64,000 bases of DNA. Origin: an uncultured Acidobacteriaceae bacterium (GTDB lineage Bacteria; Acidobacteriota; Terriglobia; Terriglobales; Acidobacteriaceae). Where the stretch lies: contig OY969625.1 of the NCBI GenBank assembly GCA_963701685.1, forward strand, positions 2,170,879 through 2,234,878. Reading direction: 5' to 3'. Shown one piece after another: positions 821 through 56,288 of this stretch. The stretch's first letter is position 1, and the number at the start of each line of letters is the position of its first letter. A model generated the notes under the pieces. It did no database searches. It saw only the letters and a list, made by a program, of their open reading frames with translations, and was not told the DNA's origin. Both the position numbers and the translations under genes were made by a program.

Positions 821-855
821 GTTGTGAGTTCTCGGTTGTCAGTTCTCAGTTGCTG
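821..855 (+). repeat. heptamer tandem array (GTTSTCM)x5, family B
   Basis: gttgtga gttctcg gttgtca gttctca gttgctg; the TGA stop (846-848) of the lyase gene lies inside the array. Confidence 0.9.
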
Positions 856-1937
856 GCGGGGCTGGCGGCGAGGATGGTGGTGTTTCCTCCGATGCGGGTG
901 TCGGTGGTGGGTTGTTGGAGGGCGGTGAGGATCGCGGGCGGGAGGCCTTCGGAGCCGAAGCGTGCGGTGTAGAAGTTGAAGGCGGCGAAGTCGTTGGCGT
1001 GGAAGTCAATTTTCTGGGTGTCGGAGGTGTAGGGCTTGACGAGAGAGGGGTCGGCGACGGCGCGGCCGTAGAAGAGGATGGCGTCGCGGAGGGTGCGGTG
1101 GTGGGACTGGTAGGCGTAGAGGTCGATGTTCTGGCGGGAGGCGAACTCGGCGATGAGGATAAGGGGTTCGAGTGCGAAGCCCTGGTAGTGGATGGCGTTT
1201 TCGTGACGCGCCATCTCGCGGGGGAAGGCGCCGGCGGGATCGATTTCCTTGATGGCGTCTTTGTAGGCGGTAATGCCGTAGTGGAAGAGCTTGTCGTCGG
1301 AGGCTACGACGCCGGTGGCGGTTGCTGCGAGGGCGCGCCAGTAGTGGTGGTTGTTCATGTCTTCGGGGCGCTCGAAGGTGAGGTCTTTGCGGGAGACTGC
1401 GTCGAGCCAGGTGATGACGCGGTGTAGTGCTGCGGGGTCGAGGGTTGGGTCGTTGACGAGGACGGAGGTGGTGATGGCGGCGGAGCCGAGGGTCCATTCG
1501 ACTTGATACCAGGATTGAGAGCGGGGCGGGTAGTCGAGGAGCGCGTGGGCCTGGGCCCAGGTGTCTAGTTGGGTTAGAGCGCAGGCGGATTCGGCATGAT
1601 TGTTGGTGGCCACGTATTGGTTCATTCCGGCCGTGATGCGGTGCTCGAAGGCTGTGTAGGGACGTGTGGCGATGGCTTCGGCGGGGTTGATGGGGCCGCT
1701 GGAGCCAGACATGTAGTGGTGCGGGATGTCCATGGGTGTTGGCGGCGCGGGGATTGCGGGCGTTGCAACGCAGGAGGGTAAGGACTCGATGGCCGCGAGA
1801 AGGAGAGGGTTGGTGGTGGTCGCGAGGGTGTGTTGGCGGGCGGGGACGTCGAGGAAGGCGGCGCCGGGGTTGAGGTGTTGGGAGTGCGTGAAGGGTGAGC
1901 AGGTGAGCGCGAGGAGCACTGCGAGGAGAAGGCGCAT
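846..1937 (-). CDS. secreted alginate lyase family protein (PL5/AlgL-like)
   Basis: N-terminal signal peptide MRLLLAVLLALTCSPFTHSQ; NNHHYW matches the AlgL NNHSYW catalytic motif. Confidence 0.75.
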   Translation of the reverse strand: MRLLLAVLLALTCSPFTHSQHLNPGAAFLDVPARQHTLATTTNPLLLAAIESLPSCVATPAIPAPPTPMDIPHHYMSGSSGPINPAEAIATRPYTAFEHRITAGMNQYVATNNHAESACALTQLDTWAQAHALLDYPPRSQSWYQVEWTLGSAAITTSVLVNDPTLDPAALHRVITWLDAVSRKDLTFERPEDMNNHHYWRALAATATGVVASDDKLFHYGITAYKDAIKEIDPAGAFPREMARHENAIHYQGFALEPLILIAEFASRQNIDLYAYQSHHRTLRDAILFYGRAVADPSLVKPYTSDTQKIDFHANDFAAFNFYTARFGSEGLPPAILTALQQPTTDTRIGGNTTILAASPASN

Positions 1938-1998
1938 GAAGGGAGTTTAGCGGAGGCGGTGATGGTGCGTCACTCGCGCTCCGGAGCTGCGCGTTCGA

Positions 1999-2934
1999 CT
2001 ACTTTTTCTTGAGGGCTTCGAGTTCGTCGAGGGTACGGGGCCAGTCGGAGCCGAGGAGGCGGGAGAGGCTGCGGTCGGCGAGGACTTTGCCGTTGGTCTG
2101 GCAGGTGGGGCAGTAGTTAGTTTCGTTGTCGGCGTAGCGGATTCGCTGGATGGGCGAGCTGCAACGGGGGCAGGGCTGGAGGTAGCGGCCGTGCGCGGCC
2201 ATGTCGGGGCGGAAGGCGGTGACCTTTTCGGGGAAGGATTTTTCAGCTTCGGTGTTGAAGCGGGCTACCCAGCTGTTGAGCGTGTCACGCGTGGCGGTGT
2301 AGAGGCGCTGGAATTCTTCGGGGGTTAGCTTGCGGGTTTGGGCGAGGGGAGAGAGCTGGGCGGCGTGGAGGATCTCGTCGGAGTAGGCGTTACCGATGCC
2401 GGAGAGGATGCGGGGATCGGTGAGGGCGCGCTTGAGGGTGCGGTTTTCGGTGGTGAGGGTTTGTTGGAAGGCTTCGGGGGTTAGGGCGAGGGGGTCGATG
2501 CCACCGGGGTCGAGATCGGCTAGCGCGGCTTCGCCTCGGACGAGGTGGAGCGAGGCGCGGCGCTTGGTGCCGGCTTCGGTCAGGGTGAGGGTGCCGTTGG
2601 GGAAGTCGAAGGCGGCGAGGTTGTTGCGGCCGTTGAGCGAGGGGCGGGGTTTCTTCGGGTCTAAGTCGCGCCAGTGGAGGCGGCCGGCGATCATCAGGTG
2701 CAGGACTAAAAACCAGGGATCAGGGCCCAGGGTCGAGGGTTCAGAGAACTCGAAGACGATGCGTTTGCCGATGCGGCGGAGGGCGCGGATGCGTTGGCCT
2801 TCGATGGAGTTGATGGGTGGGACGGCGGTGCGGAGGAGAAGTGGCGAGGCGATGCGGAGGTGTTCGAGGGGCTGGTTGAGGACGCGCGGGGTGAGGGCGG
2901 TCAGGTAGGCGGTGATGTCGGGGAGCTCGGGCAT
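1999..2934 (-). CDS. Fpg/Nei family DNA glycosylase / AP lyase
   Basis: Start set at MPELPDI (ATG at 2934), the catalytic Pro2/Glu3 N-terminus. C-terminal C4 zinc finger CPRCSSPIQRIRYADNETNYCPTCQ. The 127-aa upstream extension in the ORF track is Pro/Ser/Thr-rich and was discarded. Confidence 0.85.
   Translation of the reverse strand: MPELPDITAYLTALTPRVLNQPLEHLRIASPLLLRTAVPPINSIEGQRIRALRRIGKRIVFEFSEPSTLGPDPWFLVLHLMIAGRLHWRDLDPKKPRPSLNGRNNLAAFDFPNGTLTLTEAGTKRRASLHLVRGEAALADLDPGGIDPLALTPEAFQQTLTTENRTLKRALTDPRILSGIGNAYSDEILHAAQLSPLAQTRKLTPEEFQRLYTATRDTLNSWVARFNTEAEKSFPEKVTAFRPDMAAHGRYLQPCPRCSSPIQRIRYADNETNYCPTCQTNGKVLADRSLSRLLGSDWPRTLDELEALKKK
2714..2748 (+). repeat. G-rich heptamer array (CAGGGNN)x5, family A, in-frame inside fpg/nei
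   Basis: cagggat cagggcc cagggtc gagggtt cagagaa; read on the minus strand it encodes SEPSTLGPDPW in the glycosylase. Confidence 0.85.
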
Positions 2935-3004
2935 CAGCGATATCGTACATCCCACGCTTGCGCAAGTGTGCGCATGAATCGGGTGCGTGGTTCTTTCTGG
3001 GGAG

Positions 3005-3508
3005 TCAGTCTGCGAGGTGGAGCAGCATCTCGAATTCGAGGATGGTGGGATCGTTGGGGTAGGGTTCGGTGTGGCCGGATTTAAGGAAGCCGTAGCGCTC
3101 GTAAAAGGCAACGGCTGGGGCGTTGTTGCTGACGACCATGAGCTTGAGGGTTTGGATGTGGCGCGCGATTGCCCAGGTGCGGACGGCGTCGATGAGTGCG
3201 GCGCTGAGGCCGGTGCCACGGTGGGAAGGCGCGACCCACATGGAAATAATTTCTGCGCGGGTTGGATTGTGATCGTCGCGGAAGCACGCAACGAGGCCGC
3301 AGGCGCTGCTCGCATCCATGGCGAGGAAGCCGATTTTGTGAACGCCGTCGAGATTTGCAGAACGCTGGAGCCAATCGGCCTCGGTGAGCAGGGCTTCGCG
3401 GGCGTAGGTGCTGCCGAAGGCGGAGGGAGTGTCCTGGAGCGCGCGCAGGCGAACGTCGCGGTAGCTGGCGGCGAGGTCCGGCGTGATGGGAACGAGGTAC
3501 GGCGGCAT
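3005..3508 (-). CDS. GNAT family N-acetyltransferase
   Basis: Start at MPPYLVP (ATG at 3508); acetyl-CoA motif A WVAPSHRGTGLSAALIDAV; C-terminal AFYERYGF. Confidence 0.8.
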   Translation of the reverse strand: MPPYLVPITPDLAASYRDVRLRALQDTPSAFGSTYAREALLTEADWLQRSANLDGVHKIGFLAMDASSACGLVACFRDDHNPTRAEIISMWVAPSHRGTGLSAALIDAVRTWAIARHIQTLKLMVVSNNAPAVAFYERYGFLKSGHTEPYPNDPTILEFEMLLHLAD

Positions 3509-6982: not shown

Positions 6983-8232
<1,250 letters not shown>

Positions 8233-8432
8233 GAGTACCTGAGTAGTTTCCATAAATTTTTGCGGGATGGGATTGTTGCGAGGGGGGTGTTGCGGAATCA
8301 CGCTGGAACGGGGGTGCCGTGGAGCGGAAGTGCAGCGAAGAATCGAGCGGGGGGACCTACAAGAATGGGAGTGATGTTGCCTGTTGCGGAGTGAGATGCT
8401 GGATTTCGGTACAGCGTAGCAGAACGGGATGA

Positions 8433-18545: not shown

Positions 18546-18637
18546 GGGCAGTGTCTGCCCTGGGTACGCCAGGGCTAAAGCCCCTGTTTGTTTTGTCCTC
18601 TGTTCAGTGGGCTAAAGCCCACTGCTAATCCGGTAGG
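18546..18637 (+). repeat. cluster of REP-like GC hairpins (GGGCTAAAGCCC type)
   Basis: gggcag-tgt-ctgccc, ccagggctaaagcccctg, and cagtgggc-taaa-gcccactg followed by ctaatcc. The last is nearly identical to 54563-54591. Confidence 0.8.
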
Positions 18638-23868: not shown

Positions 23869-23873
23869 AAGAA

Positions 23874-36623: not shown

Positions 36624-36957
36624 TTCTGGCCTCCTCTTTCTTCATTTGATTGACAACGACTTCGAGCTTGTCGAAGCTGTCTTCCCAGAATCGGCGATAG
36701 CTGATTGCCCAGTCGCTGACCGTCTTGATTGCTTCGGGCCTGAGCGTGCACACACTCTCTCGTCCACGCTTGGTCTTGGTCACAATCCGCGCCCGTACCA
36801 GGGTTGCGATATGTTTTGAAATCATCTGCTGCGAGAGCGAAAACGGTTCCGTCAATCCATGCACAGAGGCAGGCCCGTGGGAGAGCCGTTGGATCATTGC
36901 CCGGCGGGTTGGATCAGACAAAGCCGCAAACGTTGTACCAAGTTTATCCACAACCAT
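36604..36957 (-). CDS. ArsR/SmtB family transcriptional regulator
   Basis: FAALSDPTRRAMIQRLSHGPASVHGLTEPFSLSQQMISKHIATL (wHTH); the 3' end overlaps the SRPBCC start by 20 nt, the usual ArsR-SRPBCC pairing. Confidence 0.85.
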   Translation of the reverse strand: MVVDKLGTTFAALSDPTRRAMIQRLSHGPASVHGLTEPFSLSQQMISKHIATLVRARIVTKTKRGRESVCTLRPEAIKTVSDWAISYRRFWEDSFDKLEVVVNQMKKEEARNGRKHS

Positions 36958-37241
36958 ATGGTAGTGGATTATTGGGCAATGTCAACTGCGTCGCGCATTA
37001 TCTCTATGGATGACCATTGGAGGCTCGGGAATGTGACACTGCCGCTATTCCAAAAAATGATGCCGACCCTGTCCCATCGTGCTGCGCTGGTCGGTCTTGG
37101 TTTGTGTACGCTCGAGCGGGTAAGGGCAGTGGCGACGTGGTTCCGACGTGAATGCAATCACGAGACCCTCGGCCGTAGTGGATGCAACCAGTTGGCGATG
37201 CCTGGTCCGTTGACGTCAGCAATGCCGGAGTCTGATCAGGG

Positions 37242-37437
37242 TCACGGTGACAGGCGTGTAAGCGCAGAGGCGCTGGGTTTCCGCGATTTCTCCAGCTTGT
37301 GCTCGGTGAAGGAGAATCGCCGGCAATCGAAGAACTCTGCGTACGTGCAGCGGATGGAGCTGGTATTGGCGGGCGAGGTCGTCGAGCTTGGGGTCGTCCG
37401 TATCGTTGAGCTGGAACCAGGGCTCGGTCGCTTCCAG
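37242..37437 (-). pseudogene. possible corA-like N-terminal gene fragment (no start, frame break, truncated)
   Basis: Minus strand reads EPWFQLNDTDDPKLDDLARQYQLHPLHV, the W-x-L-x-D...L-x-x-L...LHPL pattern that precedes the EDC motif of CorA. A shifted frame continues FDCRRFSFTEHKLEKS and then stops at 37242. No pore domain follows. Confidence 0.3.
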
Positions 37438-37450
37438 CGGGGATGCAGGG

Positions 37451-39136
37451 CTAGTCGAGGATGCGGGCTACTACGTCGTAGTCGTGGGACTCGGTGATTT
37501 GGGCTCGGTAGAAGGTGCCGGGGACGAGGGCTTCGTGGGGGCCGAAGTCGTTGATGAGGACTTTGCCGTCGATCTCGGGGGCATGGTCGAGGGAGCGGCC
37601 TTGCCAGAGTAGGTCGGTTTCGTCGGACTCGCCTTCTACGAGGATGTCGAGCTCGCGGCCGATCCATTGTTTGCGGGCGCGCTTCGAGATTTTTTGCTGG
37701 AGCTTCATTAACTTGCGGCGGCGGGATTCGATGGTGCGCCTGGGGACTTTTTCGTCGAGAGAGAAGGCGCCGGCACCTTCTTCGTCGGAGTAGGAGAAGA
37801 CGCCTAGCCAGTCGATCTGCGCGGCTTCTACGAAGGCGCAGAGTTCGTTGAAGTCTTCTTCGGTTTCGCCGGGGAAGCCTACGATGAAGCTGGTGCGGAG
37901 GACTAAGTTGGGGATGGTCTTGCGGGCCTGGGCGATGATCTGGAGGAAGCGATCTGAAGTCCCGCCTCGGCGCATTCGCTTGAGGACATTCGTCGACGCG
38001 TGTTGGAGCGGGACGTCGAGATACTTGGCGATGGTGTCGTGGCGCGCGATGGTTTGGAGGAGGCGCGGGGTGATCTTGTTGGGGTAGGCGTAGAGGAAGC
38101 GGAGCCACTTGAGGCCTTCGAGTGGGGCGAGGGCGTCGAGGAGGTCGGACAACTCTGGCTTGCGCAGAGTTGAGGGTCCAGGGCCAAGGGCCCAGGGTTC
38201 AGAGGGCAGCATCTGCGGAGGGAGGTCTTCGCCGTAGCAGGTGGTGTCCTGGCCGATAAGGGTGATTTCGCGGACGCCCTGGGCGATGAGGGATTTGGCT
38301 TCGGCTACGATGCTGGCCAGGGGGCGGGAACGGAACTTGCCGCGGAGCTGCGGGATGATGCAGAAGCTGCAGGGGTGGTCGCAGCCCTCGGCGATCTTGA
38401 TGTAGGCCGAGGCGCGGGGGGTGGTGAGGATGCGCGGGGTTTCGTCGGAGTAGAGGTAGGTGGGGAGGGTGGGTGTGGCGCCGTCCCAGGAGTCGCGGGA
38501 GAAGCGGCCGGCGGCTTGCCTCGCGTCGCCTTCGGGGCGGGAGGAGGGTCCAGGTTTCAGGGCCCAGGGTCCAGAGGGTGCGGATTCGGCTTCGTGGAGG
38601 AGTTGGGGGGCGTCGGAGTCCGGGCGGGAGTGTTGGTTTACCGAGGAGGCGTGGCGATCGATTTGGGCGGTGGTGAGGATGGGGAAGGGGCTGGCGGCGG
38701 CTTCCGCGGGTCTGTGCAGACCCGCTGCTTCCAAGATGGCTTCTAGTTCGCCGGTGCCAACTACGGCGTCGACTTCGGGGATGTTGGCGCGGATCTCATC
38801 GCGGTAACGCTCTACGAGGCAGCCGGCTACGATGAGGCGCTGGGCGCGGCCTCCGTTGGCGACTTTGTGCTGAACCATCTCGAGGATGGTGTCGACGGAT
38901 TCCTGCTTGGCACTGTCGATGAAGGAGCAGGTGTTGACGACGAGGATGTCGGCGTCTTCGGCGCGTGGGGTTAGCTGGGCGCCGCCGCGATGGAGCAGGC
39001 CCATCATGACCTCGGAGTCGACGAGGTTCTTGGGGCAGCCGAGCGAGACGAAGCCTACCGTGGGTTTGGCCGGGGAGGGTTCTGGAGAATGGGTCTCGGG
39101 GGCGGCGCCGTCTTCGAGGGTGGAGGACAGGCTCAC
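37451..39136 (-). CDS. rimO: ribosomal protein S12 methylthiotransferase RimO (with two repeat-derived insertions)
   Basis: VGFVSLGCPKNLVDSE, VVNTCSFI, radical-SAM IAEGCDHPCSFCIIP, C-terminal TRAM domain; GTG start at 39136. At 561 aa it is about 100 aa longer than the roughly 440-aa E. coli RimO as recalled. Confidence 0.9.
   Translation of the reverse strand: MSLSSTLEDGAAPETHSPEPSPAKPTVGFVSLGCPKNLVDSEVMMGLLHRGGAQLTPRAEDADILVVNTCSFIDSAKQESVDTILEMVQHKVANGGRAQRLIVAGCLVERYRDEIRANIPEVDAVVGTGELEAILEAAGLHRPAEAAASPFPILTTAQIDRHASSVNQHSRPDSDAPQLLHEAESAPSGPWALKPGPSSRPEGDARQAAGRFSRDSWDGATPTLPTYLYSDETPRILTTPRASAYIKIAEGCDHPCSFCIIPQLRGKFRSRPLASIVAEAKSLIAQGVREITLIGQDTTCYGEDLPPQMLPSEPWALGPGPSTLRKPELSDLLDALAPLEGLKWLRFLYAYPNKITPRLLQTIARHDTIAKYLDVPLQHASTNVLKRMRRGGTSDRFLQIIAQARKTIPNLVLRTSFIVGFPGETEEDFNELCAFVEAAQIDWLGVFSYSDEEGAGAFSLDEKVPRRTIESRRRKLMKLQQKISKRARKQWIGRELDILVEGESDETDLLWQGRSLDHAPEIDGKVLINDFGPHEALVPGTFYRAQITESHDYDVVARILD
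38173..38206 (+). repeat. family A heptamer array inside rimO
   Basis: agggtcc agggcca agggccc agggttc agaggg; encodes LPSEPWALGPGPST on the minus strand. Confidence 0.85.
38545..38579 (+). repeat. family A heptamer array inside rimO
   Basis: agggtcc aggtttc agggccc agggtcc agagggt; encodes APSGPWALKPGPS on the minus strand. Confidence 0.85.
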
Positions 39137-39592: not shown

Positions 39593-39660
39593 AGGGGCAG
39601 GGATTAGGGATTAGGGATTAGGGGTTAGGGTTCAGGGCCCAGGGCCCAGGGTTTAGGGAA
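39593..39660 (+). repeat. family A heptamer array, about 10 units (GGATTAG to GGGCCCA variants)
   Basis: G-runs beginning at 39600, 39607 ... 39656 with exact 7-nt period; starts immediately next to the ATG of 39263..39592. Confidence 0.9.
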
Positions 39661-39745
39661 AGGCAACAGCAACGGCAAAGGAAGAAGCAGATTTTCCCGG
39701 AGGGAATGACAGAAAGAAGAACAAGGGCGACGGAAAAAACGAAGA
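39661..39745 (+). repeat. family D composite element
   Basis: ggcaacagcaacggcaaagg + agaagcagattttcccggagggaatgacagaaagaaga + acaagggcgacgg. Confidence 0.85.
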
Positions 39746-41869: not shown

Positions 41870-42020
41870 GGTATCGGGAGAAAGTGGAGAAGCAGATTCC
41901 CGGGGAGAATGACAGAGAGAAAAGCGAGGGCAGGGGCAACGGCAGGGGCAGCGGCCTGCAGGTCTCTCCGCTGCGCATCACGAGAGACAAGAGTGTGATG
42001 CTCCGGTCGAGATGACAGAG
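41870..42020 (+). repeat. family D composite element
   Basis: agaagcagattcccggggagaatgacagagagaaaag + gggcaggggcaacggcagggg + ...ctccggtcgagatgacag. Confidence 0.85.
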
Positions 42021-43375: not shown

Positions 43376-43408
43376 TTGACAGCTATCTGAAAGATATATA
43401 TCTTTCAG
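43376..43408 (+). promoter_or_regulatory. padR promoter overlapped by a 22-bp perfect palindrome (likely operator)
   Basis: TTGACA (43376-43381), 17-nt spacer, TATCTT (43399-43404). Palindrome CTGAAAGATATATATCTTTCAG at 43387-43408. ATG at 43416. Confidence 0.55.
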
Positions 43409-43415
43409 TCACATT

Positions 43416-43988
43416 ATGAAGGCTGAAAAGACATCTACGGTTGAGTCACTGCTGGGGTTACTGAGTTTGGGGCCGATGTCGGGGTACGAGATGCGGCAGA
43501 TGATGGAGCGGTCGACCTCGAACTTCTGGACGGAGAGTTACGGGCAGATTTATCCGGCGCTGAAGCAGATGGTGAAGGACGGGCTGGCGACGGTGGAGGA
43601 GCAGAGCAAGGATGGGCGGGCGAAGAAGGTCTACAAGATCACGGGCGAGGGGGAGCGGCGGCTGAGGAAGTGGCTGGGGATGGAGACCAGGCCGCAGGTT
43701 CGTCGGAATGAGCTGGTGCTGAAGGTGTTTTTTGGGGACCAGGCGCTGAGGGGAGTGATTGCAGCGCAGGTGGTGGCGGAACGGGAGCGGTGCGAGAACG
43801 ATGTGGAACGGTTTGAGGCGTCGGTGCTGCGGATGGAGATGGAGCATGCGCGGCATCCGGCGATGCCGTACTGGAGGATGGCGGCGAGGTGCGGGATATT
43901 GCACGCGAAGGCGACGATTGCGTGGTGCGATGAGACGTTTGCGGAGTTGGAGAAGAGAGGGTTGGTGAGTAAGCCGACGTTTTACTAG
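43416..43988 (+). CDS. PadR family transcriptional regulator
   Basis: LLGLLSLGPMSGYEMRQMMERSTSNFWTESYGQIYPALKQMVKDGL is the PadR winged-helix signature. Confidence 0.85.
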   Translation: MKAEKTSTVESLLGLLSLGPMSGYEMRQMMERSTSNFWTESYGQIYPALKQMVKDGLATVEEQSKDGRAKKVYKITGEGERRLRKWLGMETRPQVRRNELVLKVFFGDQALRGVIAAQVVAERERCENDVERFEASVLRMEMEHARHPAMPYWRMAARCGILHAKATIAWCDETFAELEKRGLVSKPTFY

Positions 43989-44022
43989 TTGTCCGTTCTC
44001 AGTTCTCCGTTCTCAGTTGAAG
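43988..44022 (+). repeat. family B heptamer array (GTTSTCM)x5
   Basis: gttgtcc gttctca gttctcc gttctca gttgaag; the first G is the last base of the padR TAG stop. Confidence 0.9.
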
Positions 44023-44072
44023 GCAAGGCGTGTGATCCAAGACGAAAGAGCAGGGCGATCGAGGAGGTTGTG

Positions 44073-44768
44073 ATGAGTGCTGATCCGGTTTGGATGAAGG
44101 GCTTGTTGACGGTGCATGTGGCGTGCGGGTTTGGGTCGTTTCTGCTGGCGCCGGTGGCGCTGTCTACGGCGAAGGGTGGTCCTGCGCATCGGCGGTGGGG
44201 GATGGTTTATTTGTGGTGCATGGGGGGCGTGGCGGCTACGGCGCTGCCGATGGCGCTGTATCGGCCGGTGCTGTTTCTGGCGATGGTGGCGGTGTTTAGC
44301 TTTTATGCGGCGTTCGCTGGGTATCGGGTACTGAAGCTTAAGGATTTGGCGCGGGGCGGGAGTGCGAAGCCGGTGGATTGGATTGCGGGCGTGCTGACGT
44401 TCTGCTCGAGTTTGTTGCTGGCGCTGATGGGGGCGTTTGATCCGAAGGCGATCCAGGGATATGGGATTGTGGCGATTGTGTTTGGGCTGCTGGGGATGCG
44501 GCTGTCGTTTATGCAGTTGAAGAGTTTTGTGTGGAAGCCGAAGGAGAAGATGTTCTGGTGGTACACGCACCTGGGAAATTTTATTGGCAGCTACATCGCA
44601 GCGTGGACGGCGTTCAGCGTGGTGACGCTGCCTACGGTGTTTGGGCAACACGTTTGGTTGTGGCTGTGGCCTACGGCGGTGGGGGTTCCGGCGATTGTGT
44701 TGACTACGGCTTATTACAAGCGGAAGTTTGCGCCGCGGGTGAAGACGACGGGGGTGGTGGCGGCGTAA
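44073..44768 (+). CDS. integral membrane protein (about 6 TM), unknown family, downstream of padR
   Basis: Start at MSADPVW (ATG at 44073) with GAGGAGG 5 nt upstream; hydrophobic throughout. Confidence 0.6.
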   Translation: MSADPVWMKGLLTVHVACGFGSFLLAPVALSTAKGGPAHRRWGMVYLWCMGGVAATALPMALYRPVLFLAMVAVFSFYAAFAGYRVLKLKDLARGGSAKPVDWIAGVLTFCSSLLLALMGAFDPKAIQGYGIVAIVFGLLGMRLSFMQLKSFVWKPKEKMFWWYTHLGNFIGSYIAAWTAFSVVTLPTVFGQHVWLWLWPTAVGVPAIVLTTAYYKRKFAPRVKTTGVVAA

Positions 44769-44775
44769 GAGCTGC

Positions 44776-44817
44776 GCTCTCCGTTGTCCGTTCTCCGTTG
44801 TCCGTTCTCAGTTGGTG
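44776..44817 (+). repeat. family B heptamer array, 6 units
   Basis: gctctcc gttgtcc gttctcc gttgtcc gttctca gttggtg; lies between convergent genes and contains the TGA stop (44808-44810) of the minus-strand gene. Confidence 0.9.
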
Positions 44818-45545
44818 GGGGAGGCGTCGGGCTGGGATGTGGCGGAGGACTTGTGGGGCTTGTTGAGGCGAAGGTCTCGCGAGCTGCGGATCAGCTTCCA
44901 GATGGCGAAGGCCAGCGAGAGCAGGATGCTGGTCCAGATGATGATGAGGATGGTGGCGGCCCACTTGTCAGAGAAGTGCGACCAGAGGCGGAGAAAGGCG
45001 TGGCCGTAGCGGACGCCGATCCAGGCGGCGATGCAGTGGCGGATGAAGCGGCTGATGGTGAAGGCAGCCATGAATTTTTTGCGCGACATGTGCACGGCTC
45101 CGGCGGCGAGGACGAAGGGCGAGAGCGGCATGGGTGGAGGCAGAAGCGCGGGGAGCGAGACGGAGAGGATGGCGTGGTCTTCCATCCAGGAGGTGACACG
45201 GCCGAGGATGTTTTTTGGGACGTGTTTCTCGAGGAAGGCCATGCCGCCGGCCTGACCGACGGCGTGGGAGAAGAGGCCTCCGATGGCGGAGCCGATGGTG
45301 GCGAGGGCGACGAGGAGGAAGATGTTGGAGTGGGCGGCGGCGAAGACGATGAGGAGGATGTCGGTGACGCCGGGGATGGGGAGGGGGACGAAGGAGCTGT
45401 CGACTGCAGAGATGGGGAGCAGGCCGATGACGCCGAGGTGGCGGAAGAAATGGATGAAGCCGTGATGGGCGGCGTGCTGGGCGACAGGGGCCGCGACGTC
45501 CTGGAAGGCGAGGAGCGCGGCCGTTGGTGAGAAGGATATGCCCAT
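44808..45545 (-). CDS. YqaA/DedA-superfamily membrane protein
   Basis: GLLPISAVDSSFVPLPIPGVTDILLIV and LPPPMPLSPFVLAAGA resemble the SNARE-associated/DedA core. Confidence 0.7.
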   Translation of the reverse strand: MGISFSPTAALLAFQDVAAPVAQHAAHHGFIHFFRHLGVIGLLPISAVDSSFVPLPIPGVTDILLIVFAAAHSNIFLLVALATIGSAIGGLFSHAVGQAGGMAFLEKHVPKNILGRVTSWMEDHAILSVSLPALLPPPMPLSPFVLAAGAVHMSRKKFMAAFTISRFIRHCIAAWIGVRYGHAFLRLWSHFSDKWAATILIIIWTSILLSLAFAIWKLIRSSRDLRLNKPHKSSATSQPDASPTN

Positions 45546-46118: not shown

Positions 46119-49037
46119 ATGCGCAACCTCAGTGGTAATCAGATTCGGGAAGATTTTTTGCGGTTTTTTGAGACGAAGGGGCATCGGCGGGTGCACTCGT
46201 CTTCTTTGGTGCCGGCGAATGATCCTACGCTGCTGTTTACGAATGCGGGGATGAATCAGTTTAAGGATGTGTTTTTGGGGGCGGAGACGCGGGTGTATTC
46301 GCGGGCGGCGTCGAGCCAGAAGTGCGTGCGGGCGGGTGGGAAGCATAACGATCTGGAGAACGTTGGGTTTACGCGGCGGCACCATACGTTCTTTGAGATG
46401 CTGGGAAATTTTTCGTTTGGAGATTACTTCAAGAAGGATGCGATTGCGTTTGCGTGGGAGTTGCTGACTTCTCCGGATTGGTTTGGGATTGATAAGGACC
46501 GGCTGTATGTGACGGTGTTTGAGGGGAACGAAACTGTTCCGCGGGACGACGAGGCGGAGCGGCTTTGGATTGAGACGGGCGTGCCGAAGGAGCGGATCTT
46601 TGGCATGGGGATGAAGGATAACTTCTGGCAGATGGGCGATACCGGGCCTTGCGGGCCTTGCTCGGAGATTTTTTATGACCTGGGGTTGGCGGCTTCGGAG
46701 ACTGGCGAAGACAAGCCGTTTCCGGAAGACGATCAGCGGTACATGGAGATTTGGAATTTAGTGTTCATGCAGTTTGATCGGGCGAGTGATGGGGTGTTGA
46801 CTCCGCTACCGAAGCCTTCGATCGATACGGGCATGGGGCTGGAGCGCGTGGCTTGCGTGCTGCAGGGGAAGCTTTCGAATTATGAGAGTGATTTGTTTAC
46901 GCCGTTGATTCGGAGGGCGGTGGAGTTGACGGGGTTTGGTGGGGCGTTGTCCGATGTCCGTTCTCCGTTGTCCGTTGAAGAGCTGGCGGTGAGCGATGAG
47001 AAGGGGGCGGCTTCGCTGCGGATTATTGCGGACCATGCTCGGGCTTCTACGTTTTTGATTGCGGATGGGGTGGTGCCGAGCAATGAGGGGCGGGGGTATG
47101 TGCTGCGGAAGATTTTGCGGCGCGGGATTCGGCATGGGCGGCTGTTGGGGCAGGAGAAGCCGTTTATGCATGAGATGGTGCTGGCCGTGAGGGATGAGAT
47201 GGTGGCGGCGTATCCGGAGTTGGCGGAGTCGGCGGAGCGGGTCGCTAAGGTGGTGCTGGCGGAGGAGGAGCAGTTTGCTCGGGTGATGGATGTTGGTTCT
47301 AGAGAACTAAACAATGCTATCGACGAAGCTAAGTACAACGGCTACGTGAAAAATATGTGGGAGTTTTGTTTGAAAGATGGATTTGTGCCGCCCGCTGAAG
47401 ACTGGCTCTACCTTACACGTCAAATAAAATCCGGACGGCGTCAGGAACAGCTTGCAGCGGCATCACGTATCTTCCCAGTTGCCAAATATGGAAACAAATC
47501 CAGAGAACTACTGGACTCCATGTACTCAAATCCGATAGAGCTACCCGGCAAAACGGCGTTCACTCTTTACGAGACTTTCGGCTTGTCCAAAGACTTCATC
47601 GCAGATGCTGCGAGAGATGCAGGTCTCCTCTTCGATGATGAGGGATTCGAGCGGGCTAAGGAAGAGGAGCAGGCGCGGGCGAGGGCTAGTTGGAAGGGTG
47701 GGTCGTCGAAGTCGGCGGCGCCGGTTTATCGGGAGTTGGAGAAGACGGAGTTTGAGGGGTATACCGCGCTGCGTACCGATGGTGCGAAGGTGTTGGCGCT
47801 GGTGAAGGATGGCGTTGGCGTGACGGTGCTGCGGCCTGGGGATGTAGGTGAGGTGGTGTTGGATGCGACGAGTTTCTATGCGGACTCGGGCGGGCAGGTT
47901 GGGGATGTGGGGTGGTTGTATTCCGGGGACCATAACTCGGTGGTCGCCGATGTGACTGGTTGCAAGAAGCCGGTGCAGGGGGTGTTTGCGCACCAGGTGG
48001 TGGTGAAGCAGACGATTGCTGTTGGCGATGTGGTGGATGCTGTGGTGGATGGGGCGGTGCGGGCGGCGGTGATGCGGAATCATACGGGGACGCATTTGCT
48101 GCATGCGGCGTTGAGGCAGGTGCTGGGGACGCATGTGAAGCAGGCTGGGTCGTTGAATGACCGGTCGCGGCTGCGGTTTGATTTTTCGCACTTTGCGGGT
48201 GTGGCGGAGGAGGAGTTGGCGGAGATTGAGTCGATTGTGAATGCGCAGGTGTTAGCCAACACACCTGTAGTCACGATGGTGGATGTGCCGATTGATGTGG
48301 CCGTGCATGAGCTGGGAGCGATGGCGCTGTTTGGCGAGAAGTATGGCGATAAGGTGCGGGTGGTGAAGATTGGGGAGTTCTCGACGGAGCTTTGCGGTGG
48401 AACGCATACGGGGGCGACGGGGGAGATTGGGTTGGTGAAGCTGATGGGTGAGGGCGCGGTGGCTAGCGGCGTTCGGCGCGTGGAGGCGGTGACGGGGATG
48501 GGGTCGCTGGGGGTGTTTCGGCGGGATGCGGATGTGGCGAAGGTTGCCGGGCAGTTTGTTGGGGGTGGAGATGTGAGTGGGGAGGCGCTGCGGGCTCGGG
48601 TGGCGAGCCAGGAAGAGGAGATGAAGAAGCTAAGGCGGGAGCTGGAGGCGCTGCGGATGAAGTCGGCTACGGCGGCTACTGCGGATGCGGCGGCTTCGGC
48701 TGTGGAGGTTAAGGGGGTTAAGGTTTTGAGTCAGCGGGTGGATGCGCTCGATAAAAGCCAGATGCGGAATTTGGTGGATGAGCTGCGCGGGAAGTTGGGG
48801 TCGGGGGTTGTGGTGCTGGGGGCGGCTTCTTCGGACGGAAAGGTTAGTTTGATTGTTGGGGTTAGTAAGGACCTGACCGGGCGGGTGCAGGCGGGGAAGG
48901 TTGTTGGCGCGATTGCCGCGAAGGTTGGGGGGAAGGGTGGTGGGAGGCCGGATTTGGCGGAGGCTGGCGGGACGGATGTAGCCGGGTTGGATGCGGCGCT
49001 GGCGGGGGCGAGGGATGTGGTGGAGGAGATGCTGTAA
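46119..49037 (+). CDS. alaS: alanine--tRNA ligase (with two in-frame insertions)
   Basis: [45 protein letters not shown], editing-domain HTGTHLLH, C-terminal [15 protein letters not shown]. At 972 aa it is about 90 aa longer than usual. Confidence 0.95.
46946..46980 (+). repeat. family B heptamer array inside alaS
   Basis: gttgtcc gatgtcc gttctcc gttgtcc gttgaag; encodes [13 protein letters not shown]. Confidence 0.9.
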
Positions 49038-49420
49038 AGGCAGCTACTAGCTGCTAGCTTCTGGCAAAGGCAAAGGACAACACGGGTCCCTGCACTGCGC
49101 TGTGCTTCGGTCGAGATGACGCTGCGGCGGAGAGATGCAGATTCCTTCGCTTCGCTGCGGAATGACAGCCAGAAATGCAAGGGCAACGGCAAGAGCAACG
49201 GCAACAACAACTGCAAAAGAAGAAGCAGATTCCCAGAGGGAATGACAGACAGAAAGGCAAGGGCGACGAGAACAGCAAGGGCGATAACAACAGCGAGGGC
49301 GACTACAGGGGTCCTTCCCTTCGTTCAGGATGACGGAGGGGGTGGTCGGGATGACGGTGCGGTTGGCTGGGATGACGGACTGGTTGGTCGGATTGGTGGA
49401 GTGGGCTGGATTGGGGCGGT
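49038..49420 (+). repeat. largest family D composite block (several modules in tandem)
   Basis: ggcaaaggcaaagg; tcgagatgac; gcagattccttcgcttcgctgcggaatgacag; (ggcaac)n; agaagcagattcccagagggaatgacagacagaaagg; ttcaggatgacgg; gggatgacgg x2. Confidence 0.85.
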
Positions 49421-49494: not shown

Positions 49495-52023
49495 ATGGGT
49501 CTCCTTATTCAGGGTGGGGTTGGAAGGAGCTGCGGCTGGTTGGGCGCGGTGGTGCTGGTGGGGATGTGGTGCGGGGGCGTGGGGTCGGTGCAGGTGCGGG
49601 CGGAGACTGCGTCTGATATTGCGGCGAAGCCTGGGGTGGGTTGGGATGCGGCGGTTGCGGCGCGGGTGGCGTTTGAGGCGGAGCCTCGGCGGACGCATAC
49701 TAGGGAAGAGTATGCGCGGGTGATGAATGGGTTCCGCGCGATCTATCATTCGGATCCGGATCATGCGCATGCGGCGGAGGCTGTGGCGCAGGTGGCTGAG
49801 CTGCTGAATGAGATGGGGCGCGAGTTTGGCGATAAGAAGAGCGTCCACGACGCGGCGGGGCAGTATGAGTATTTAGCGAAGGCGTATCCGGGCGACAAGC
49901 TGGCTCCGGAGGCGCTGGTGAAGGCGCTGGCGTTGCTGGGGCCGGCGGATGCGGATGAGGCGGCGAAGGTTAAGGCGCAGCTGGTGCAGGATTATCCGCG
50001 GGAGGCTCGGAAGGCTGGGGTGGAGGTGGCGGCTGGTCGGGGATCCGTGAATCCCACTTATGACGGTGAGACTGTCATGAATGGGGCACCCGGGACTGTG
50101 GCTCGCACACCCACATCTCAGAAGCGAGATGTGGGGCACCCGGCGTCGTTCAGCAATTCCACCGATGACGGTGAGGCGGTCAAGGATGGGGCACACAGTA
50201 ATGGATCTTCGGCGGCTGGAACTGCGGGTGTCTCTGTTGCGCTGCGTTCCGGTCGGGAGGACAGTGGTGGCGCGGGTCGGATTGAGCCGGTCGCGCAGGA
50301 GGATTTGACTTCGGGGCGGTTGACTCCGGATCTGGTGGGGACGACGAACGGGAGGAAGACGGGGCCGCTGGCGGTGGTGACGGGGATTCGGCACTGGTCG
50401 ACGGCTAGTTATACGCGGGTGGCGATTGACTTGAATGTGGCTCCGGGAGAAGAGGTGAAGTATGAGGCGGCGCGGGTGGAGAATCCGGATCGCATCTTCT
50501 TTGACCTGGGGCATGCGCGGCTGGCGCCGGAGATGGTGGGGAAGAGCTTCAATGTGACCGATGATGGATTTCTGACGCGGGTGCGGGCGGCGCAGTTTTC
50601 CGGTGAGGTGACGCGGGTGGTGCTGGATGTGCATCACGTGGCGGAGTACTCGGCGTTTCTGCTGCCGAATCCTTATCGGCTGATTATTGATATTCATGGG
50701 AATGCGGGGCAGCGAGTTAGCGAGTTAGCGAGTCAGCGGGGTGAGGGTTCAGGGCTCAGGGCCCAGGGTCCAGAAGACGCGAGAGGCGAGGGTTCAGGGT
50801 CCAAGGTCCAGGGTTCAGGGGTGGCGGGACAGCCTGCAGCGGTGGAAGTTTCTAGTTTGCCGCCGATGCCGGTTACGGATGGAAGCGCTGGCTTTGGGTT
50901 GCCGGCGCGGAGTTTGGATCGGGTAGGCGAGGGGAAGACGGTGGCGCCGCCTCGGGTGGTGATCGCGTCGAAGCCTACGGCGGCCCGGCCGGTGCCGAAT
51001 ACGGTGGTGAAGACTGCTGCGGATACCAGTAGCGAGGTTGCGGAGGTTAGTCGGCAGCCGGGGATGGTGGAGGCTACGCGGCGGCCTACGTCGAAGCCGA
51101 TTGCAGAGACGAGTGGGGATGCGGCCGTTGATGTTGCGAGTGACGCGCATTATGTGCCGCGGACGCGGAGGAGTTCGTCGTCCCACCTTAGCGACGATGG
51201 GACCTTCGCGAAGATGGGGCGCCCGGGTGCTTCGGTGAAGGGGGAGCCGGCGGAAGCGCCGCCTCCTACGGCGGATGGGGAGACGTCGCTGGTGCGGGCG
51301 CTGGGGCTGAAGATTGGGCGGATTGTGATTGATGCGGGGCATGGTGGGCATGACTCGGGTACGCTGGGCGCGGGTGGGATTGAAGAGAAGGATGTGGTGC
51401 TGGATGTGGCGCTGAGGCTGGGCAAGCTGCTGCATGACCGGTTGGGCGCGGAGGTTGTTTATACACGCGATGACGATACGTTTGTGCCGTTGGAGACTCG
51501 GACGGCGATTGCAAATAAGGCGCAGGCGGATCTGTTTATCAGCGTGCATGCGAACAGCTCGTCGGATCCTACGGTGAAGGGGGTGGAAGTTTACTACCTG
51601 AACTTTACGAGCGATCCGGAGGCGATGACGGTGGCTAGTCGCGAGAACGCCGTGTCGACGGAGAGCGTGCATGAGTTGAGTGACCTGGTGAAGAAGATTG
51701 CGCTGAAGGACAAGATTGATGAGAGCAAGGAGCTGGCGGCGGATGTGGATGCGTCGTTGTATGCGGGGCTGCGGCGGGGGAATCCTGAGCTGAGGAATCG
51801 CGGGGTGAAGAAGGCTCCGTTTGTGGTGCTGATTGGAGCGAATATGCCTTCGATTCTGGCGGAGATTAGTTTCGTGACGAATCCGGATACGGCGGAGAAG
51901 CTGGAGACGCCGGAGTATCGGGAGCGGGTGGCGGAGAGTTTGTATAAGGGGATTGCGGTGTATGCGCAGGGGATCAATGGGGCGCGGCCGCGGGTGGCTA
52001 CGGTGGAGCAGGCGGAGAGGTGA
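49495..52023 (+). CDS. N-acetylmuramoyl-L-alanine amidase (AmiC-like: TPR-like N-domain, AMIN domain, amidase_3 domain)
   Basis: AMIN: VTGIRHWSTASYTRVAIDL...RLIIDIHG. Catalytic: IVIDAGHGGHDSG, DLFISVHANS, ILAEISFVTNP. The linkers are built from repeats. Confidence 0.85.
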   Translation: MGLLIQGGVGRSCGWLGAVVLVGMWCGGVGSVQVRAETASDIAAKPGVGWDAAVAARVAFEAEPRRTHTREEYARVMNGFRAIYHSDPDHAHAAEAVAQVAELLNEMGREFGDKKSVHDAAGQYEYLAKAYPGDKLAPEALVKALALLGPADADEAAKVKAQLVQDYPREARKAGVEVAAGRGSVNPTYDGETVMNGAPGTVARTPTSQKRDVGHPASFSNSTDDGEAVKDGAHSNGSSAAGTAGVSVALRSGREDSGGAGRIEPVAQEDLTSGRLTPDLVGTTNGRKTGPLAVVTGIRHWSTASYTRVAIDLNVAPGEEVKYEAARVENPDRIFFDLGHARLAPEMVGKSFNVTDDGFLTRVRAAQFSGEVTRVVLDVHHVAEYSAFLLPNPYRLIIDIHGNAGQRVSELASQRGEGSGLRAQGPEDARGEGSGSKVQGSGVAGQPAAVEVSSLPPMPVTDGSAGFGLPARSLDRVGEGKTVAPPRVVIASKPTAARPVPNTVVKTAADTSSEVAEVSRQPGMVEATRRPTSKPIAETSGDAAVDVASDAHYVPRTRRSSSSHLSDDGTFAKMGRPGASVKGEPAEAPPPTADGETSLVRALGLKIGRIVIDAGHGGHDSGTLGAGGIEEKDVVLDVALRLGKLLHDRLGAEVVYTRDDDTFVPLETRTAIANKAQADLFISVHANSSSDPTVKGVEVYYLNFTSDPEAMTVASRENAVSTESVHELSDLVKKIALKDKIDESKELAADVDASLYAGLRRGNPELRNRGVKKAPFVVLIGANMPSILAEISFVTNPDTAEKLETPEYRERVAESLYKGIAVYAQGINGARPRVATVEQAER
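50052..50196 (+). repeat. three family E hairpin elements inside the amidase gene
   Basis: 50052-50092, 50109-50141 (perfect 10-bp stem CCCACATCTC/GAGATGTGGG) and 50157-50196; they encode NPTYDGETVMNGAPG, TSQKRDVGHP and STDDGEAVKDGAH. Confidence 0.8.
50712..50822 (+). repeat. octamer (GCGAGTTA) array plus two family A heptamer arrays inside the amidase gene
   Basis: gcgagtta gcgagtta gcgagtca; agggttc agggctc agggccc agggtcc (50744-50772); agggttc agggtcc aaggtcc agggttc agggg (50789-50822). Confidence 0.9.
51181..51226 (+). repeat. family E hairpin element inside the amidase gene
   Basis: tcccaccttagcgacgatgggaccttcgcgaagatggggcgcccgg; encodes SHLSDDGTFAKMGRPG. Confidence 0.8.
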
Positions 52024-52026
52024 GAC

Positions 52027-52054
52027 GTTCTCAGTTGTCCATTCTCAGTTGTCA
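52027..52054 (+). repeat. family B heptamer array, 4 units
   Basis: gttctca gttgtcc attctca gttgtca; starts 3 nt after the amidase TGA. Confidence 0.9.
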
Positions 52055-52109
52055 GGAAAGGCCGGTGGGCGTGCTACCGTTTGGGGGGTTGGTGTAGTCT
52101 TTCGCTTGT

Positions 52110-54495: not shown

Positions 54496-54560
54496 GATGA
54501 TCACCTGTCTCCGTGCCGCGAGCGAAGGCCCAGGGCAAAAGCCCAGGGTTGCTGGATTAT

Positions 54561-54596
54561 TTCAGCGGGCTAAAGCCCGCTGCTAATCCCAAGGAC
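54561..54596 (+). repeat. REP-like hairpin (GGGCTAAAGCCC type)
   Basis: cagcgggc-taaa-gcccgctg followed by ctaatcc; matches 18604-18630. Confidence 0.85.
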
Positions 54597-54600
54597 ATGC

Positions 54601-54705
54601 AACGGCAACAGAAGAAGCAGATTCCCGAAGGGAATGGCAGAAAGAAAAGCAAGGGCAAGCGCAAAGACAAATGCAGGGATCCTTCGCTGCGCTCAGGATG
54701 ACGAC
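54601..54705 (+). repeat. family D composite element
   Basis: caacggcaacag + agaagcagattcccgaagggaatggcagaaagaaaag + caagggcaagcgc + gggatccttcgctgcgctcaggatgacg. Confidence 0.85.
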
Positions 54706-54716
54706 GTTGTGATTCC

Positions 54717-56288
54717 TCAGCCGAGTGTGGGCATGGTGGTGTCTACGCCGGAGCGGATGCCTGTGGGCCAGCGGGCGGTTACGGTTTTGAGGCGGGTGTA
54801 GAAGCGGACGCCTTCGGGGCCGTAGATGGCGTGGTCGCCGAAGAGGGAACGCTTCCATCCGCCGAAGCTGTGGAAGGCCATGGGGACGGGGATGGGGACG
54901 TTGATGCCTACCATGCCGGCTTGTACGCGGCGGGCGAAGTCGCGGGCGGTGTCTCCGTCGCGGGTGAAGATGCTGGTGCCGTTGCCGAACTCGTGGTCGT
55001 TGATGAGCTGGAGGGCGGTCTCGAAGTTGTTGGCGCGGACGATGCCGAGGACGGGGCCGAAGATTTCTTCCTTGTAGATGCGCATGGTGGGCTTTACGTG
55101 GTCGAAGAGGGAGGCGCCGAGGAAGAAGCCGTTGTCCGTTGTCCGTTCTCCGTTGTCCGTTGTTGGAGGTGTCAAGAGTTTTGGACTACGACCGTCTACT
55201 ACCAGGGCTGCGCCTTCTTGCTGGCCGAGGGCGATGTAGCTGGTGACTTTTTCGAGGTGGGCGCGGGTGATTAGGGGGCCTAGATCGGATTCGCCGTTGG
55301 GTGCGTCGGCTGCGCCGTCGCCTACGCGGAGGTCGGCGATGCGGGATTCTAGTTTCGTGATGAGGGCTTCGGCAGTGGAGTTGCCAACGGTGACGGCGAT
55401 GGAGATGGCCATGCAGCGCTCGCCGGCGGAGCCGTAGGCGGCACCTACTAAGGCGTCGGCGGCTTGATCGAGGTCGGCGTCGGGCATGACGATCATGTGA
55501 TTCTTGGCGCCGCCGAGAGCCTGGACGCGCTTGCCGGTGGCGGTGCCGGTGCGGTAGACGTACTCCGCGATGGGAGTGGAGCCGACGAAGCTGACGGCCT
55601 GGATGGTGGGGTGGGCGAGGATGGCGTCGACTGCTTGCTTGTCGCCGTGGACTATGTTGAAGACGCCGTCGGGGAGGCCGGCTTCCTTGAGCATCTCGGC
55701 GAGGAGGTTGGCCGAGCTCGGGTCGCGCTCGGAGGGCTTGAGGACGAAGGTGTTGCCGCAGGCCAGGGCGAGGGGGAACATCCAGAGCGGGACCATGGCG
55801 GGGAAGTTGAAGGGCGTGATGCCGGCGACTACGCCGAGGGGTTGGCGCATGGAGTAGCTGTCGACACCTGCGCCTACTTGTTCGGTGAGCTCGCCTTTGA
55901 GGAGGTGAGGGATGCCGGTGGCGAACTCGATATTCTCGAGGCCACGGGTGGCTTCGCCGCGGGCGTCGGAGAAGACTTTGCCGTGCTCGCGATTGATGAG
56001 GGCGGCGACTTCGTCGAGGCGGCGCTCGTAGATTTCGCGGAAGCGGAAGAGGACGCGGGCGCGGCGGAGAGGCGGCTGGGCGGACCAGTCCGGGAAGGCG
56101 GCCGCGGCGGCGGCTACGGCGGCGTCGACTTCAGCGGCGGTGGCTAGCGGGACGCGGGACTGGATGGTGCCGGTGGCGGGGTGGTAGACGTCGGCGAAAC
56201 GGTTTGAGGTGCTGGGGGTGGGGACGCCGTTGATCCAGTGATTGAGGGTGGTGATGGCGGGGGTGGTGGGTGTTGCGGTGGCGGACAT
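54717..56288 (-). CDS. mmsA: CoA-acylating methylmalonate-semialdehyde dehydrogenase (with repeat insertion)
   Basis: [31 protein letters not shown], catalytic [17 protein letters not shown] at 56288 has AAGGAG 6 nt upstream; the track start at 56318 is also possible. Confidence 0.9.
55132..55166 (+). repeat. family B heptamer array inside mmsA
   Basis: gttgtcc gttgtcc gttctcc gttgtcc gttgttg; encodes [13 protein letters not shown] on the minus strand. Confidence 0.9.

Follow-up and report, generated by a model that had tools for sequence, protein, structure and literature searches.

Why should every short repeat in a long piece of chromosome point the same way, whatever the direction of the surrounding genes? 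The question arises from a stretch of 64,000 nucleotides of an uncultured Acidobacteriaceae bacterium (contig OY969625.1, positions 2,170,879 to 2,234,878; hereafter the window). An earlier note, made from the sequence alone, described in it five families of repeats (G-rich arrays, here family A; families B, D and E; and a set of hairpins), all co-oriented on the strand as given (+). The note likened them to replication-arm-polarised motifs such as the FtsK-orienting polar sequences (KOPS) or Chi, as opposed to transcription-linked or randomly transposing elements. We found that in related genomes the orientation of these repeats follows the sign of the GC skew, and that the families behave as insertions, found in some genomes and missing from close relatives of these. 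The reading that we favor is that selfish repeats insert and expand in a replication-coupled, strand-specific manner, and we would give it about an even chance of being correct.

Each family was sought on both strands of the window, with regular expressions and a repeat finder. The core of family D (GCAGATT..ATGRCRG) occurs six times on the + strand and never on the other, with about 0.02 expected by chance. The corresponding ratios (+ to -) are 9:0 for true G3N4 heptamer arrays of family A (17:0 with a loose regular expression), 6:0 for the CGTTSTC arrays of family B, 5-6:0 for family E (a hairpin followed by GATGAC) and 4:0 for hairpins of the form GGGC[TA]AAAGCCC. Beyond the families counted in the note, GCAAVG hexamer arrays, a (TTCCAGC)5 array and 66-nt repeats at 30003-30173 also lie on the + strand. 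Because a one-strand scan could miss reversed copies, a family-blind test was made with 16-mers; it returned 70 direct pairs (3.7 expected) against 4 inverted ones (1.1 expected), and the inverted matches of at least 15 nt are just two, one a local palindrome (43387-43408) and the other a pair of 16-mers within coding sequence. The unanimity reported for each family is thus confirmed. The chance of about 2^-24 that accompanied it was too generous: since hairpin, D and E units are frequently joined in composites, the 29 copies are not independent events. What stands is a set of about 19 independent sites, all on the + strand, for which the two-sided probability is about 4e-6.

The background against which these counts must be read is strongly asymmetric. 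The + strand of the window contains 25971 G versus 13741 C, a GC skew of +0.31, with T exceeding A; the skew is uniform across positions 1 to 64000 and keeps its sign whichever direction the genes take. Third codon positions are G 0.55 and C 0.19 in genes on the G-rich strand, C 0.63 and G 0.17 in genes on the C-rich strand. Genes of either strand therefore share the same genome-strand bias, and the skew is not driven by transcription or codon usage; the window behaves as one replichore arm. With a skew of this size, an even split between strands is too simple a null. By base composition alone, A, D and E would be expected 5-15 times as often on the + strand as on the other, B about equally often on both (0.95), and hairpins (0.10) and TTCCAGC (0.34) mostly in the opposite orientation, so that composition cannot explain the unanimity. 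Transcription-linked orientation can be ruled out as well. The gene pairs that flank copies are of all kinds (-/-, +/+, convergent and divergent), and host genes belong to either strand, several arrays being within genes and not merely beside them. The note's view that orientation is independent of transcription holds, and Pfam matches agree with the strands that it gave to neighboring and host genes (fpg, rimO and mmsA on minus, alaS and the amidase gene on plus).

Related Acidobacteriaceae genomes provided a proxy for a test of replication arms. One genome per species was scanned for the D core, and the strand of each match was compared with the local GC skew; the survey covered more than 30 loci of relatives (designated by L-numbers) from about 15 genomes, and its high-skew set comprised 30 loci, 15 records having positive and 15 negative skew. 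When these 30 loci are oriented by skew, matches on the G-rich and C-rich strands number 46:0 for D, 22:0 for E, 6:0 for hairpins, 16:0 for hexamer arrays and 29:2 (by regular expression) for A, for which there is one true reversed array, in L030. Four further high-skew rimO loci, reached through RimO orthologs and not chosen for D, agree, L120, L122 and L243 with families and L121 with A arrays only. The switch can be followed inside two contigs. On contig 9 of Granulicella sp. L46, D is reversed at 56 kb and 272 kb, where the skew is negative, and forward at 520 kb, where it is positive; on a 3.1-Mb contig of a metagenome-assembled genome (MAG), skew sign and D orientation both differ between 184 kb and the two sites at 1832 kb and 2488 kb. 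Ordered by absolute skew, D orientation runs from 30:30 below 0.05 through 13:5, 3:0 and 15:0 to 66:0 above 0.25, and E and hairpins behave alike. The few E exceptions to the skew rule are chance matches or come from a different organism of 50% GC.

These observations support a tie between orientation and replication arms. The opposite outcome envisaged in the earlier note, no switch and mixed orientation elsewhere, is not what relatives display, since their repeats flip with the skew; its claim of arm polarity is supported by the high-skew loci, with the exception of family B, which is not generally polarised outside this lineage. Two loci bear on the relation between skew and repeats. A metagenome contig of 50% GC with a skew of -0.16 (L229) carries three true E-like units (GATCCTTCAC..TTCAGGATGAC), co-oriented and on the C-richer strand, so E is found beyond the high-skew clade, where it relates to skew in a different way. 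Locus L244 (skew -0.33), although syntenic with the window, is almost free of all repeat families, from which it follows that extreme skew alone does not entail repeats.

How the polarity arises can be approached through degenerate and paired copies. In high-skew DNA, nhmmer found 71 D matches of at least 10 bits on the G-rich strand and 0 on the other, with 10 partly decayed copies that are likewise forward. The lack of reversed copies even at 10 bits argues that polarity arises at insertion rather than by decay, and differential decay of reversed copies is thereby ruled out. Adjacent D pairs are direct in 16 cases and inverted in 0 in high-skew genomes; low-skew relatives have 30 inverted pairs and 3 direct.

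Proteins offer a record of insertion. Among RimO orthologs that share about 90% identity, length varies between 512 and 648 residues. All of this variation falls at two hot spots, which hold an A array (in the window), an E unit, a hairpin doublet, another family, or nothing; with respect to the G-rich strand, the inserts always point the same way. Compared with solved homologs, MmsA and AlaS have their B arrays as insertions in loops: alaS is 21 nt longer in the window than in L121, and mmsA is 21 nt longer than its L055 ortholog, 21 nt being three heptamers or seven residues. One and the same site can hold arrays of different families, A in the window and in L120, B-type in L243, and in L040 and L100 genes on the G-rich strand contain D units that keep the reading frame. 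In the window, the reading frames of rimO (37451-39136), alaS, mmsA, fpg (1999-3315) and the amidase gene run through repeat units, which add peptides to these conserved proteins; the same loops have the peptide GLEGGFSPLSARGE, from the hairpin family, and VISTEAQRSGE, from family E, in relatives. It is here that the earlier note needs correction. Its distinction from transposing elements is not supported for families that are insertion polymorphisms between close relatives, that include REP-like members (D and E; REP, repetitive extragenic palindrome) and one, the hairpins, that flanks a Y1 transposase gene in relatives; strand polarity coupled to replication is, moreover, known from single-strand transposition of the IS200/IS605 type (PMC6006769, PMC3971601). 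Nor is a KOPS- or Chi-like nature supported, the families being hairpin elements and tandem arrays of 25-150 nt and not frequent 5-8-mers.

The anatomy of the units points in the same direction. Family D is a unit of about 48 nt, GAAGAAGCAGATTCCC-N4-GGGAATGACAGAAAGAAAGGCAAGGGCAA, often embedded in runs of GCAARG hexamers and sometimes tandem. It ends in GACAG (reverse complement CTGTC), and nearly all copies of E end in GATGACG/A (reverse complement CGTC/TGTC); both thus have the unpaired tag of CGTC/TGTC REPs. The stems of E covary among four types (TCCT/AGGA 15, TTCC/GGAA 5, TCTC/GAGA 4, TTCT/AGAA 3), always followed by TGAC, so that structure is conserved through compensatory change, as in REPs mobilized by REP-associated tyrosine transposases (RAYTs). 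The stems of D and E start with AT (ATTCCC / ATCCT); the D stem has 6 bp and a loop of 4 nt, the E loop 11-30 nt, and there is no CCA tail. By these features of sequence, D and E appear to be tagged hairpins resembling CGTC-type REPs. The hairpin family is a doublet that is stable as a DNA hairpin (z = -4.4). No Rfam family matches D, E or hairpins, and an RNA role for the repeats is unlikely because their orientation ignores gene direction. All nine A arrays contain 4-11 GGG tracts with 4-nt loops, which makes their + strand a G-quadruplex motif by sequence (at least four G3 tracts, loops of 1-7 nt).

A candidate for the mobilizing enzyme appears in two relatives. At one syntenic locus, L120 (14898-15353) and L243 (15187-15837) contain a Y1_Tnp gene (E = 2.9e-12; HVH and YIEENP motifs) with the hairpin doublet immediately 3' of it. 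The counterpart in the window, 32380-32520, has the flanking hairpin GGGCGGGTCC..GGGTCCGCCC followed by (AGGGTCC)10, without the Y1 gene.

Taken together, these properties suggest the following scenario. The window would be part of one arm of an Acidobacteriaceae chromosome with extreme strand asymmetry, carrying selfish repeats typical of its lineage. These would be of three sorts: REP-like tagged hairpins (D and E, a stem-loop and then TGAC), the hairpin doublet that flanks the Y1/IS200-like gene in relatives, and tandem arrays of 6-7-nt units. The elements are inserted between genes and, where their total length keeps the reading frame, into surface loops and linkers of housekeeping proteins. 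One could envision that they are copied or inserted as single-stranded DNA at the replication fork, where only one strand of an element could enter the one template strand that is exposed; the model is single-strand transposition by Y1/HUH enzymes into the lagging-strand template. Y1 transposases act on this template, which gives a replication-linked orientation bias (PMC6006769, PMC3971601). Arrays seeded from the elements might inherit their polarity and then grow and shrink by slippage. Extreme skew through deamination of cytosines on an exposed strand is an established idea. The polarity, its agreement with the sign of skew, the behavior as insertions and the REP-like anatomy are shown by the sequences; we infer the single-strand mechanism, its link to skew and the identity of the leading strand: in this clade one template strand may stay single-stranded for unusually long, which would produce both the skew and near-exclusive insertion into that strand. 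Prolonged exposure of one strand is also our proposed reason why polarity is absolute only in high-skew genomes. Within this scenario, replication direction, and not transcription or chance, would set the uniform orientation.

Several results weigh against strand-specific insertion at the fork. In low-skew relatives, D forms inverted dimers and its orientation is random, so a purely mechanistic polarity would need some switch particular to the high-skew clade. Polarity extends to arrays that lack hairpins, and their growth by slippage from polarised seeds is conjecture. The orientation flip comes from contigs of relatives, which stand in for the window's own chromosome. In other skewed contigs of a metagenome scan, family B is concordant with skew in 8 cases and discordant in 6; B-type arrays are common in low-skew soil bacteria (the scan covered mostly low-skew contigs), and the 6/6 of family B may hold only in this lineage. 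The link between hairpin and transposase depends on one gene locus in two relatives, and a tblastn search with the L120 transposase found no Y1 transposase copy in the window. CGTC-type REPs have no known dedicated transposase (PMC3733652). Comparison of filled and empty RimO sites, whose flanks are too diverged, allowed neither an insertion target nor a target duplication to be defined.

The uniform orientation might instead be the work of selection, copies inserting either way and reversed ones being purged, whether because inversions between opposite copies break strand organization or because a G-quadruplex or hairpin on the wrong template blocks the fork. The strength of polarity does scale with the magnitude of skew. 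Every repeat kind is polarised, arrays without hairpins included, dispersed inverted repeats are absent from the window, and every A array forms, on a single strand, a canonical G3N4 quadruplex motif by sequence; moreover, avoidance of inversions predicts the same orientation within an arm and the opposite one between arms (the principle is set out in PMC9297083). Yet repeats of 25-50 nt are poor substrates for recombination, and adjacent inverted dimers, which would be harmless if recombined, are missing as well (0/16 compared with 30/33 in low-skew relatives). The lack of any reversed copy, intact or decaying, among 71 would require very strong and rapid purging, and we regard selection as a possible but rather doubtful explanation. 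More passively, G-rich low-complexity repeats might arise or survive only on the G-rich strand (40% G, 21% C) while reversed copies mutate away. Such a by-product of composition could draw on the advantage computed for A, D and E, on the strong mutational pressure at third positions (G3 0.55 versus C3 0.19) and on islands of zero skew, described below, which suggest that skew builds up over time. It predicts the wrong orientation for hairpins and TTCCAGC and no bias for B, however; D is A-rich, contrary to the excess of T over A; and the copies are young (polymorphic, mostly above 30 bits), decayed reversed ones being absent. This explanation seems improbable to us.

Whether the repeats serve as polar signals, oriented like the KOPS that direct FtsK or like Chi and read by a translocase or recombinase, is a question that their relation to replication arms invites. 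The KOPS motif is G-rich, and the GGG..GGG tracts of family A recall it. But the elements are long, structured and sparse, with about one repeat site per 3 kb (some 19 in 64 kb), and confined to intergenic DNA and permissive protein loops. Their presence varies among close relatives, down to near absence in L244 in spite of its skew, and low-skew relatives show no polarity for D. Signaling would have to be the role of at least five unrelated sequences, and we think it very improbable that it is. A local coincidence, for example a large segmental duplication or a tandem-origin block, might be suspected from the tandem or composite nature of some units. The roughly 19 separate sites are spread across 54 kb among unrelated conserved genes, and the same rule obtains in more than 30 loci from about 15 other genomes; this cross-genome result refutes coincidence, whose probability we consider negligible.

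The asymmetry itself deserves comment. A GC skew of 0.3 or more in Acidobacteriaceae DNA of 62% GC is found in the window and in L005, L039, L040, L060, L100, L120, L243, L244 and others. An assembly artefact is ruled out, as both skew and repeats are shared by genomes assembled in different ways: Illumina isolates (Granulicella sp. L46), MAGs made with MEGAHIT and long-read MAGs. Granulicella sp. S156 (L094), named in the same genus, has a skew of about zero. Acidobacteria were the phylum with the weakest strand bias in a 2015 survey (PMC4613354), and in the literature we found neither extreme skew nor polarised repeats described for Acidobacteriaceae. Some 60-70% of genes lie on the C-rich strand (28 vs 12 in the window, 82 vs 53 in 31 independent high-skew loci, counts in which the ORF caller may somewhat favor that strand), among them rho, ftsY, hrcA-grpE-dnaJ, fabH, gpsA and plsY. 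A search for indications of the leading strand turned up only two independent tRNAs, both on the G-rich strand, and a motif scan for dnaA and similar genes found infB alone, on the same strand; no change of skew sign was found inside individual loci. Two readings offer themselves, a majority of genes on the lagging strand or a leading strand that is C-rich in these genomes. It is tempting to speculate that these genomes form a sub-clade with an unfamiliar replication or repair regime, marked by a skew of about 0.3 at 62% GC, by a gene distribution that implies mostly lagging-strand genes or an inversion of the G-rich-leading rule, by one orientation per arm for every repeat family, with REPIN-type dimers (REPIN, REP doublet forming hairpins) made one-way, and by in-frame spread into housekeeping proteins. 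We advance this wider interpretation tentatively, as one that is rather unlikely. Sharp-edged islands of about zero skew interrupt high-skew DNA in the window (36260-37450) and in L030, L082, L090, L097, L099 and L118. The island of the window holds an AHSA1-like gene and unannotated ORFs, and such islands look like recently acquired DNA not yet skewed.

The individual sites, all on the + strand, are as follows. Family A begins with an (AGGGNNN)n array at 2715-2748, inside the minus-strand fpg at about residues 189-200, and recurs at 23873-23908 between ribE and ribD. An array of GGATTAG/GGAACAG units at 31970-31998 lies just after an NHL-repeat gene, where L243 has a B-type array, and the longest array, (AGGGTCC)10, occupies 32436-32510, the syntenic place of the Y1 transposase gene in L120 and L243. 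Within rimO (minus strand), arrays at 38173-38206 and 38545-38578 fill insertion hot spots 2 and 1, respectively. The array at 39599-39660 (AGGGATT..AGGGCCC) is directly followed by a hexamer array and a D unit, and two arrays at 50738-50822 fall in the linker of the AMIN/Amidase_3 gene (plus strand; 49495-52023). Arrays of family B, (CGTTSTC/AGTTSTC)n, are found at 819-859 (3' end of an alginate-lyase gene), 43986-44026 (end of padR), 44767-44821 (intergenic), 46944-46984 (inside alaS, plus strand, 46119-49037, an in-frame insertion relative to Escherichia coli AlaS), 52018-52058 (after the amidase gene, present also in the ortholog L055) and 55129-55169 (inside mmsA, minus strand, 54717-56318, encoding the loop insertion). 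Just upstream of padR, the perfect 22-nt palindrome at 43387-43408 (CTGAAAGATATATATCTTTCAG), the window's only sizeable inverted repeat, is probably the padR operator.

Hairpin, D and E units are mostly compound. A hairpin doublet stands at 18568-18631 between dnaJ and grpE, and an E-type unit whose end is CGCTCAGGATGACAG at 32575-32624. The D unit at 39684-39732 reads GAAGAAGCAGATT-CCC-N4-GGGAATGACAG-AAAGAA, and a degenerate D unit at 30627-30652 is preceded by (TTCCAGC)5 at 30552-30588. Composites comprise a D unit, hexamer array and E unit at 41889-42017; E, a D-like unit, hexamer array, D, hexamer array, E and three 21-nt GGATGACGG repeats at 49084-49391; and a hairpin doublet (GGGCAAAAGCCC; CAGCGGGCTAAAGCCCGCTGCTAATCC) with D, hexamers and E at 54529-54703, conserved in the ortholog L055. 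The three tandem 21-nt units (49328-49391) each start with GGATGACGG, the 3' tag of family E, which means that the tag itself can be amplified. The divergent intergenic region 29941-30795 has all its features on the + strand: a C-rich motif (CCCCCTCCCCCCTCC), an Acido-Lenti-1 RNA match at 30292-30336, the three 66-nt tandem repeats (30003-30173), (TTCCAGC)5 and the degenerate D unit. The Acido-Lenti-1 of L030 likewise lies on the G-rich strand. In the window Rfam also matched an SRP RNA and a tRNA-Thr, and Acido-Lenti-1 agrees with an acidobacterial origin. Two further features concern genes. The 5' end of rho (minus strand, 8200-8243) has no in-frame start codon, an ATG (MTISEL...) being one base out of frame at an A-run, which points either to an assembly error (a homopolymer indel) or to a genuine frameshift. 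At 59591-63601, LigD, with phosphoesterase, ligase and primase-polymerase domains, adjoins Ku, the two forming a complete pair for non-homologous end joining.

If orientation is indeed imposed at the replication fork by strand-specific insertion, these genomes would be an example from nature of short repeats that all, without exception, take their orientation from the direction of replication, beside sister genomes in which the same element is unpolarised. This contrast makes it possible to test how REP-like elements move, why GC skew differs between lineages and how far strand asymmetry shapes genome architecture. RimO, AlaS, MmsA and Fpg repeatedly receive repeat-encoded peptides, a source of protein length variation. 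On the practical side, high-skew genomes will mislead gene callers through over-long ORFs on the C-rich strand, and repeat orientation could mark replichores in fragmented MAGs.

The repeats inspire analogies with several known systems. In the IS200/IS605 family (IS608, ISDra2), hairpin ends are recognized as single-stranded DNA by a Y1 HUH transposase, and insertion is into the lagging-strand template (PMC6006769, PMC3971601). Insertion of this type occurs 3' of a fixed tetra- or pentanucleotide and leaves no target duplication. The Y1_Tnp gene next to the hairpin family in two relatives recalls this arrangement; in contrast to these insertion sequences, the repeats described here are non-autonomous, 25-70 nt long and of several families, their polarity is absolute and not statistical, no target tetranucleotide is defined, and the window has no transposase gene. 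Like REPs (PMC3733652, PMC3116915), they are short palindromes with an unpaired tag that occur in large numbers, are particular to their lineage and in some cases lie within genes. On the C-rich strand, D and E read TGTC/CGTC followed by a stem that opens with AT and by a loop; the hairpin family reads TTAG and then a stem. The RAYT-like gene flanked by repeats brings to mind the REPIN-RAYT system, and the inverted D dimers of low-skew relatives resemble REPINs. Unlike REPINs, the high-skew clade has no inverted dimers, only singletons and head-to-tail runs in one orientation per arm. CGTC REPs have stems of 8-9 bp starting with A-T, loops of 4-5 nt and a CCA tail, and occur mostly as head-to-head dimers (PMC3733652); the 6-bp stem of D and the 11-30-nt loop of E depart from this plan, and high-skew genomes lack the head-to-head dimers. 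CGTC REPs have not been reported from Acidobacteria, and RPE-4 and RPE-6 of Rickettsia belong to the CGTC superfamily (PMC3733652). As in Rickettsia palindromic elements (RPE), palindromic repeats are tolerated as in-frame peptides in conserved proteins; unlike RPE, the same loops take different families from genome to genome, tandem heptamer arrays are inserted too, and orientation follows the DNA strand rather than the gene.

With KOPS, Chi and architecture-imparting oligomers the repeats share one orientation per arm and a switch between arms, observed in relatives. They differ in that KOPS and Chi are frequent 5-8-mers, mostly inside genes, statistically skewed and stable, whereas the repeats here are long, structured, sparse and polymorphic insertions. 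A parallel for the arrays may be sought in the short tandemly repeated repetitive (STRR) sequences, heptanucleotide tandem repeats of heterocystous cyanobacteria reportedly described by Mazel et al. in 1990. As with STRR, a small set of 7-nt units recurs in tandem arrays at many scattered sites; the unit sequences differ. We know of no strand polarity or intragenic in-frame copies among STRR. The latter have been used for typing (PMC5088731). The known kind to which our repeats belong is that of replication-polarised single-strand mobile DNA and REPs; what is unusual here is the absoluteness of the polarity, the number of unrelated families that obey it, the contrast with sister genomes and the extreme-skew background against which it is displayed.

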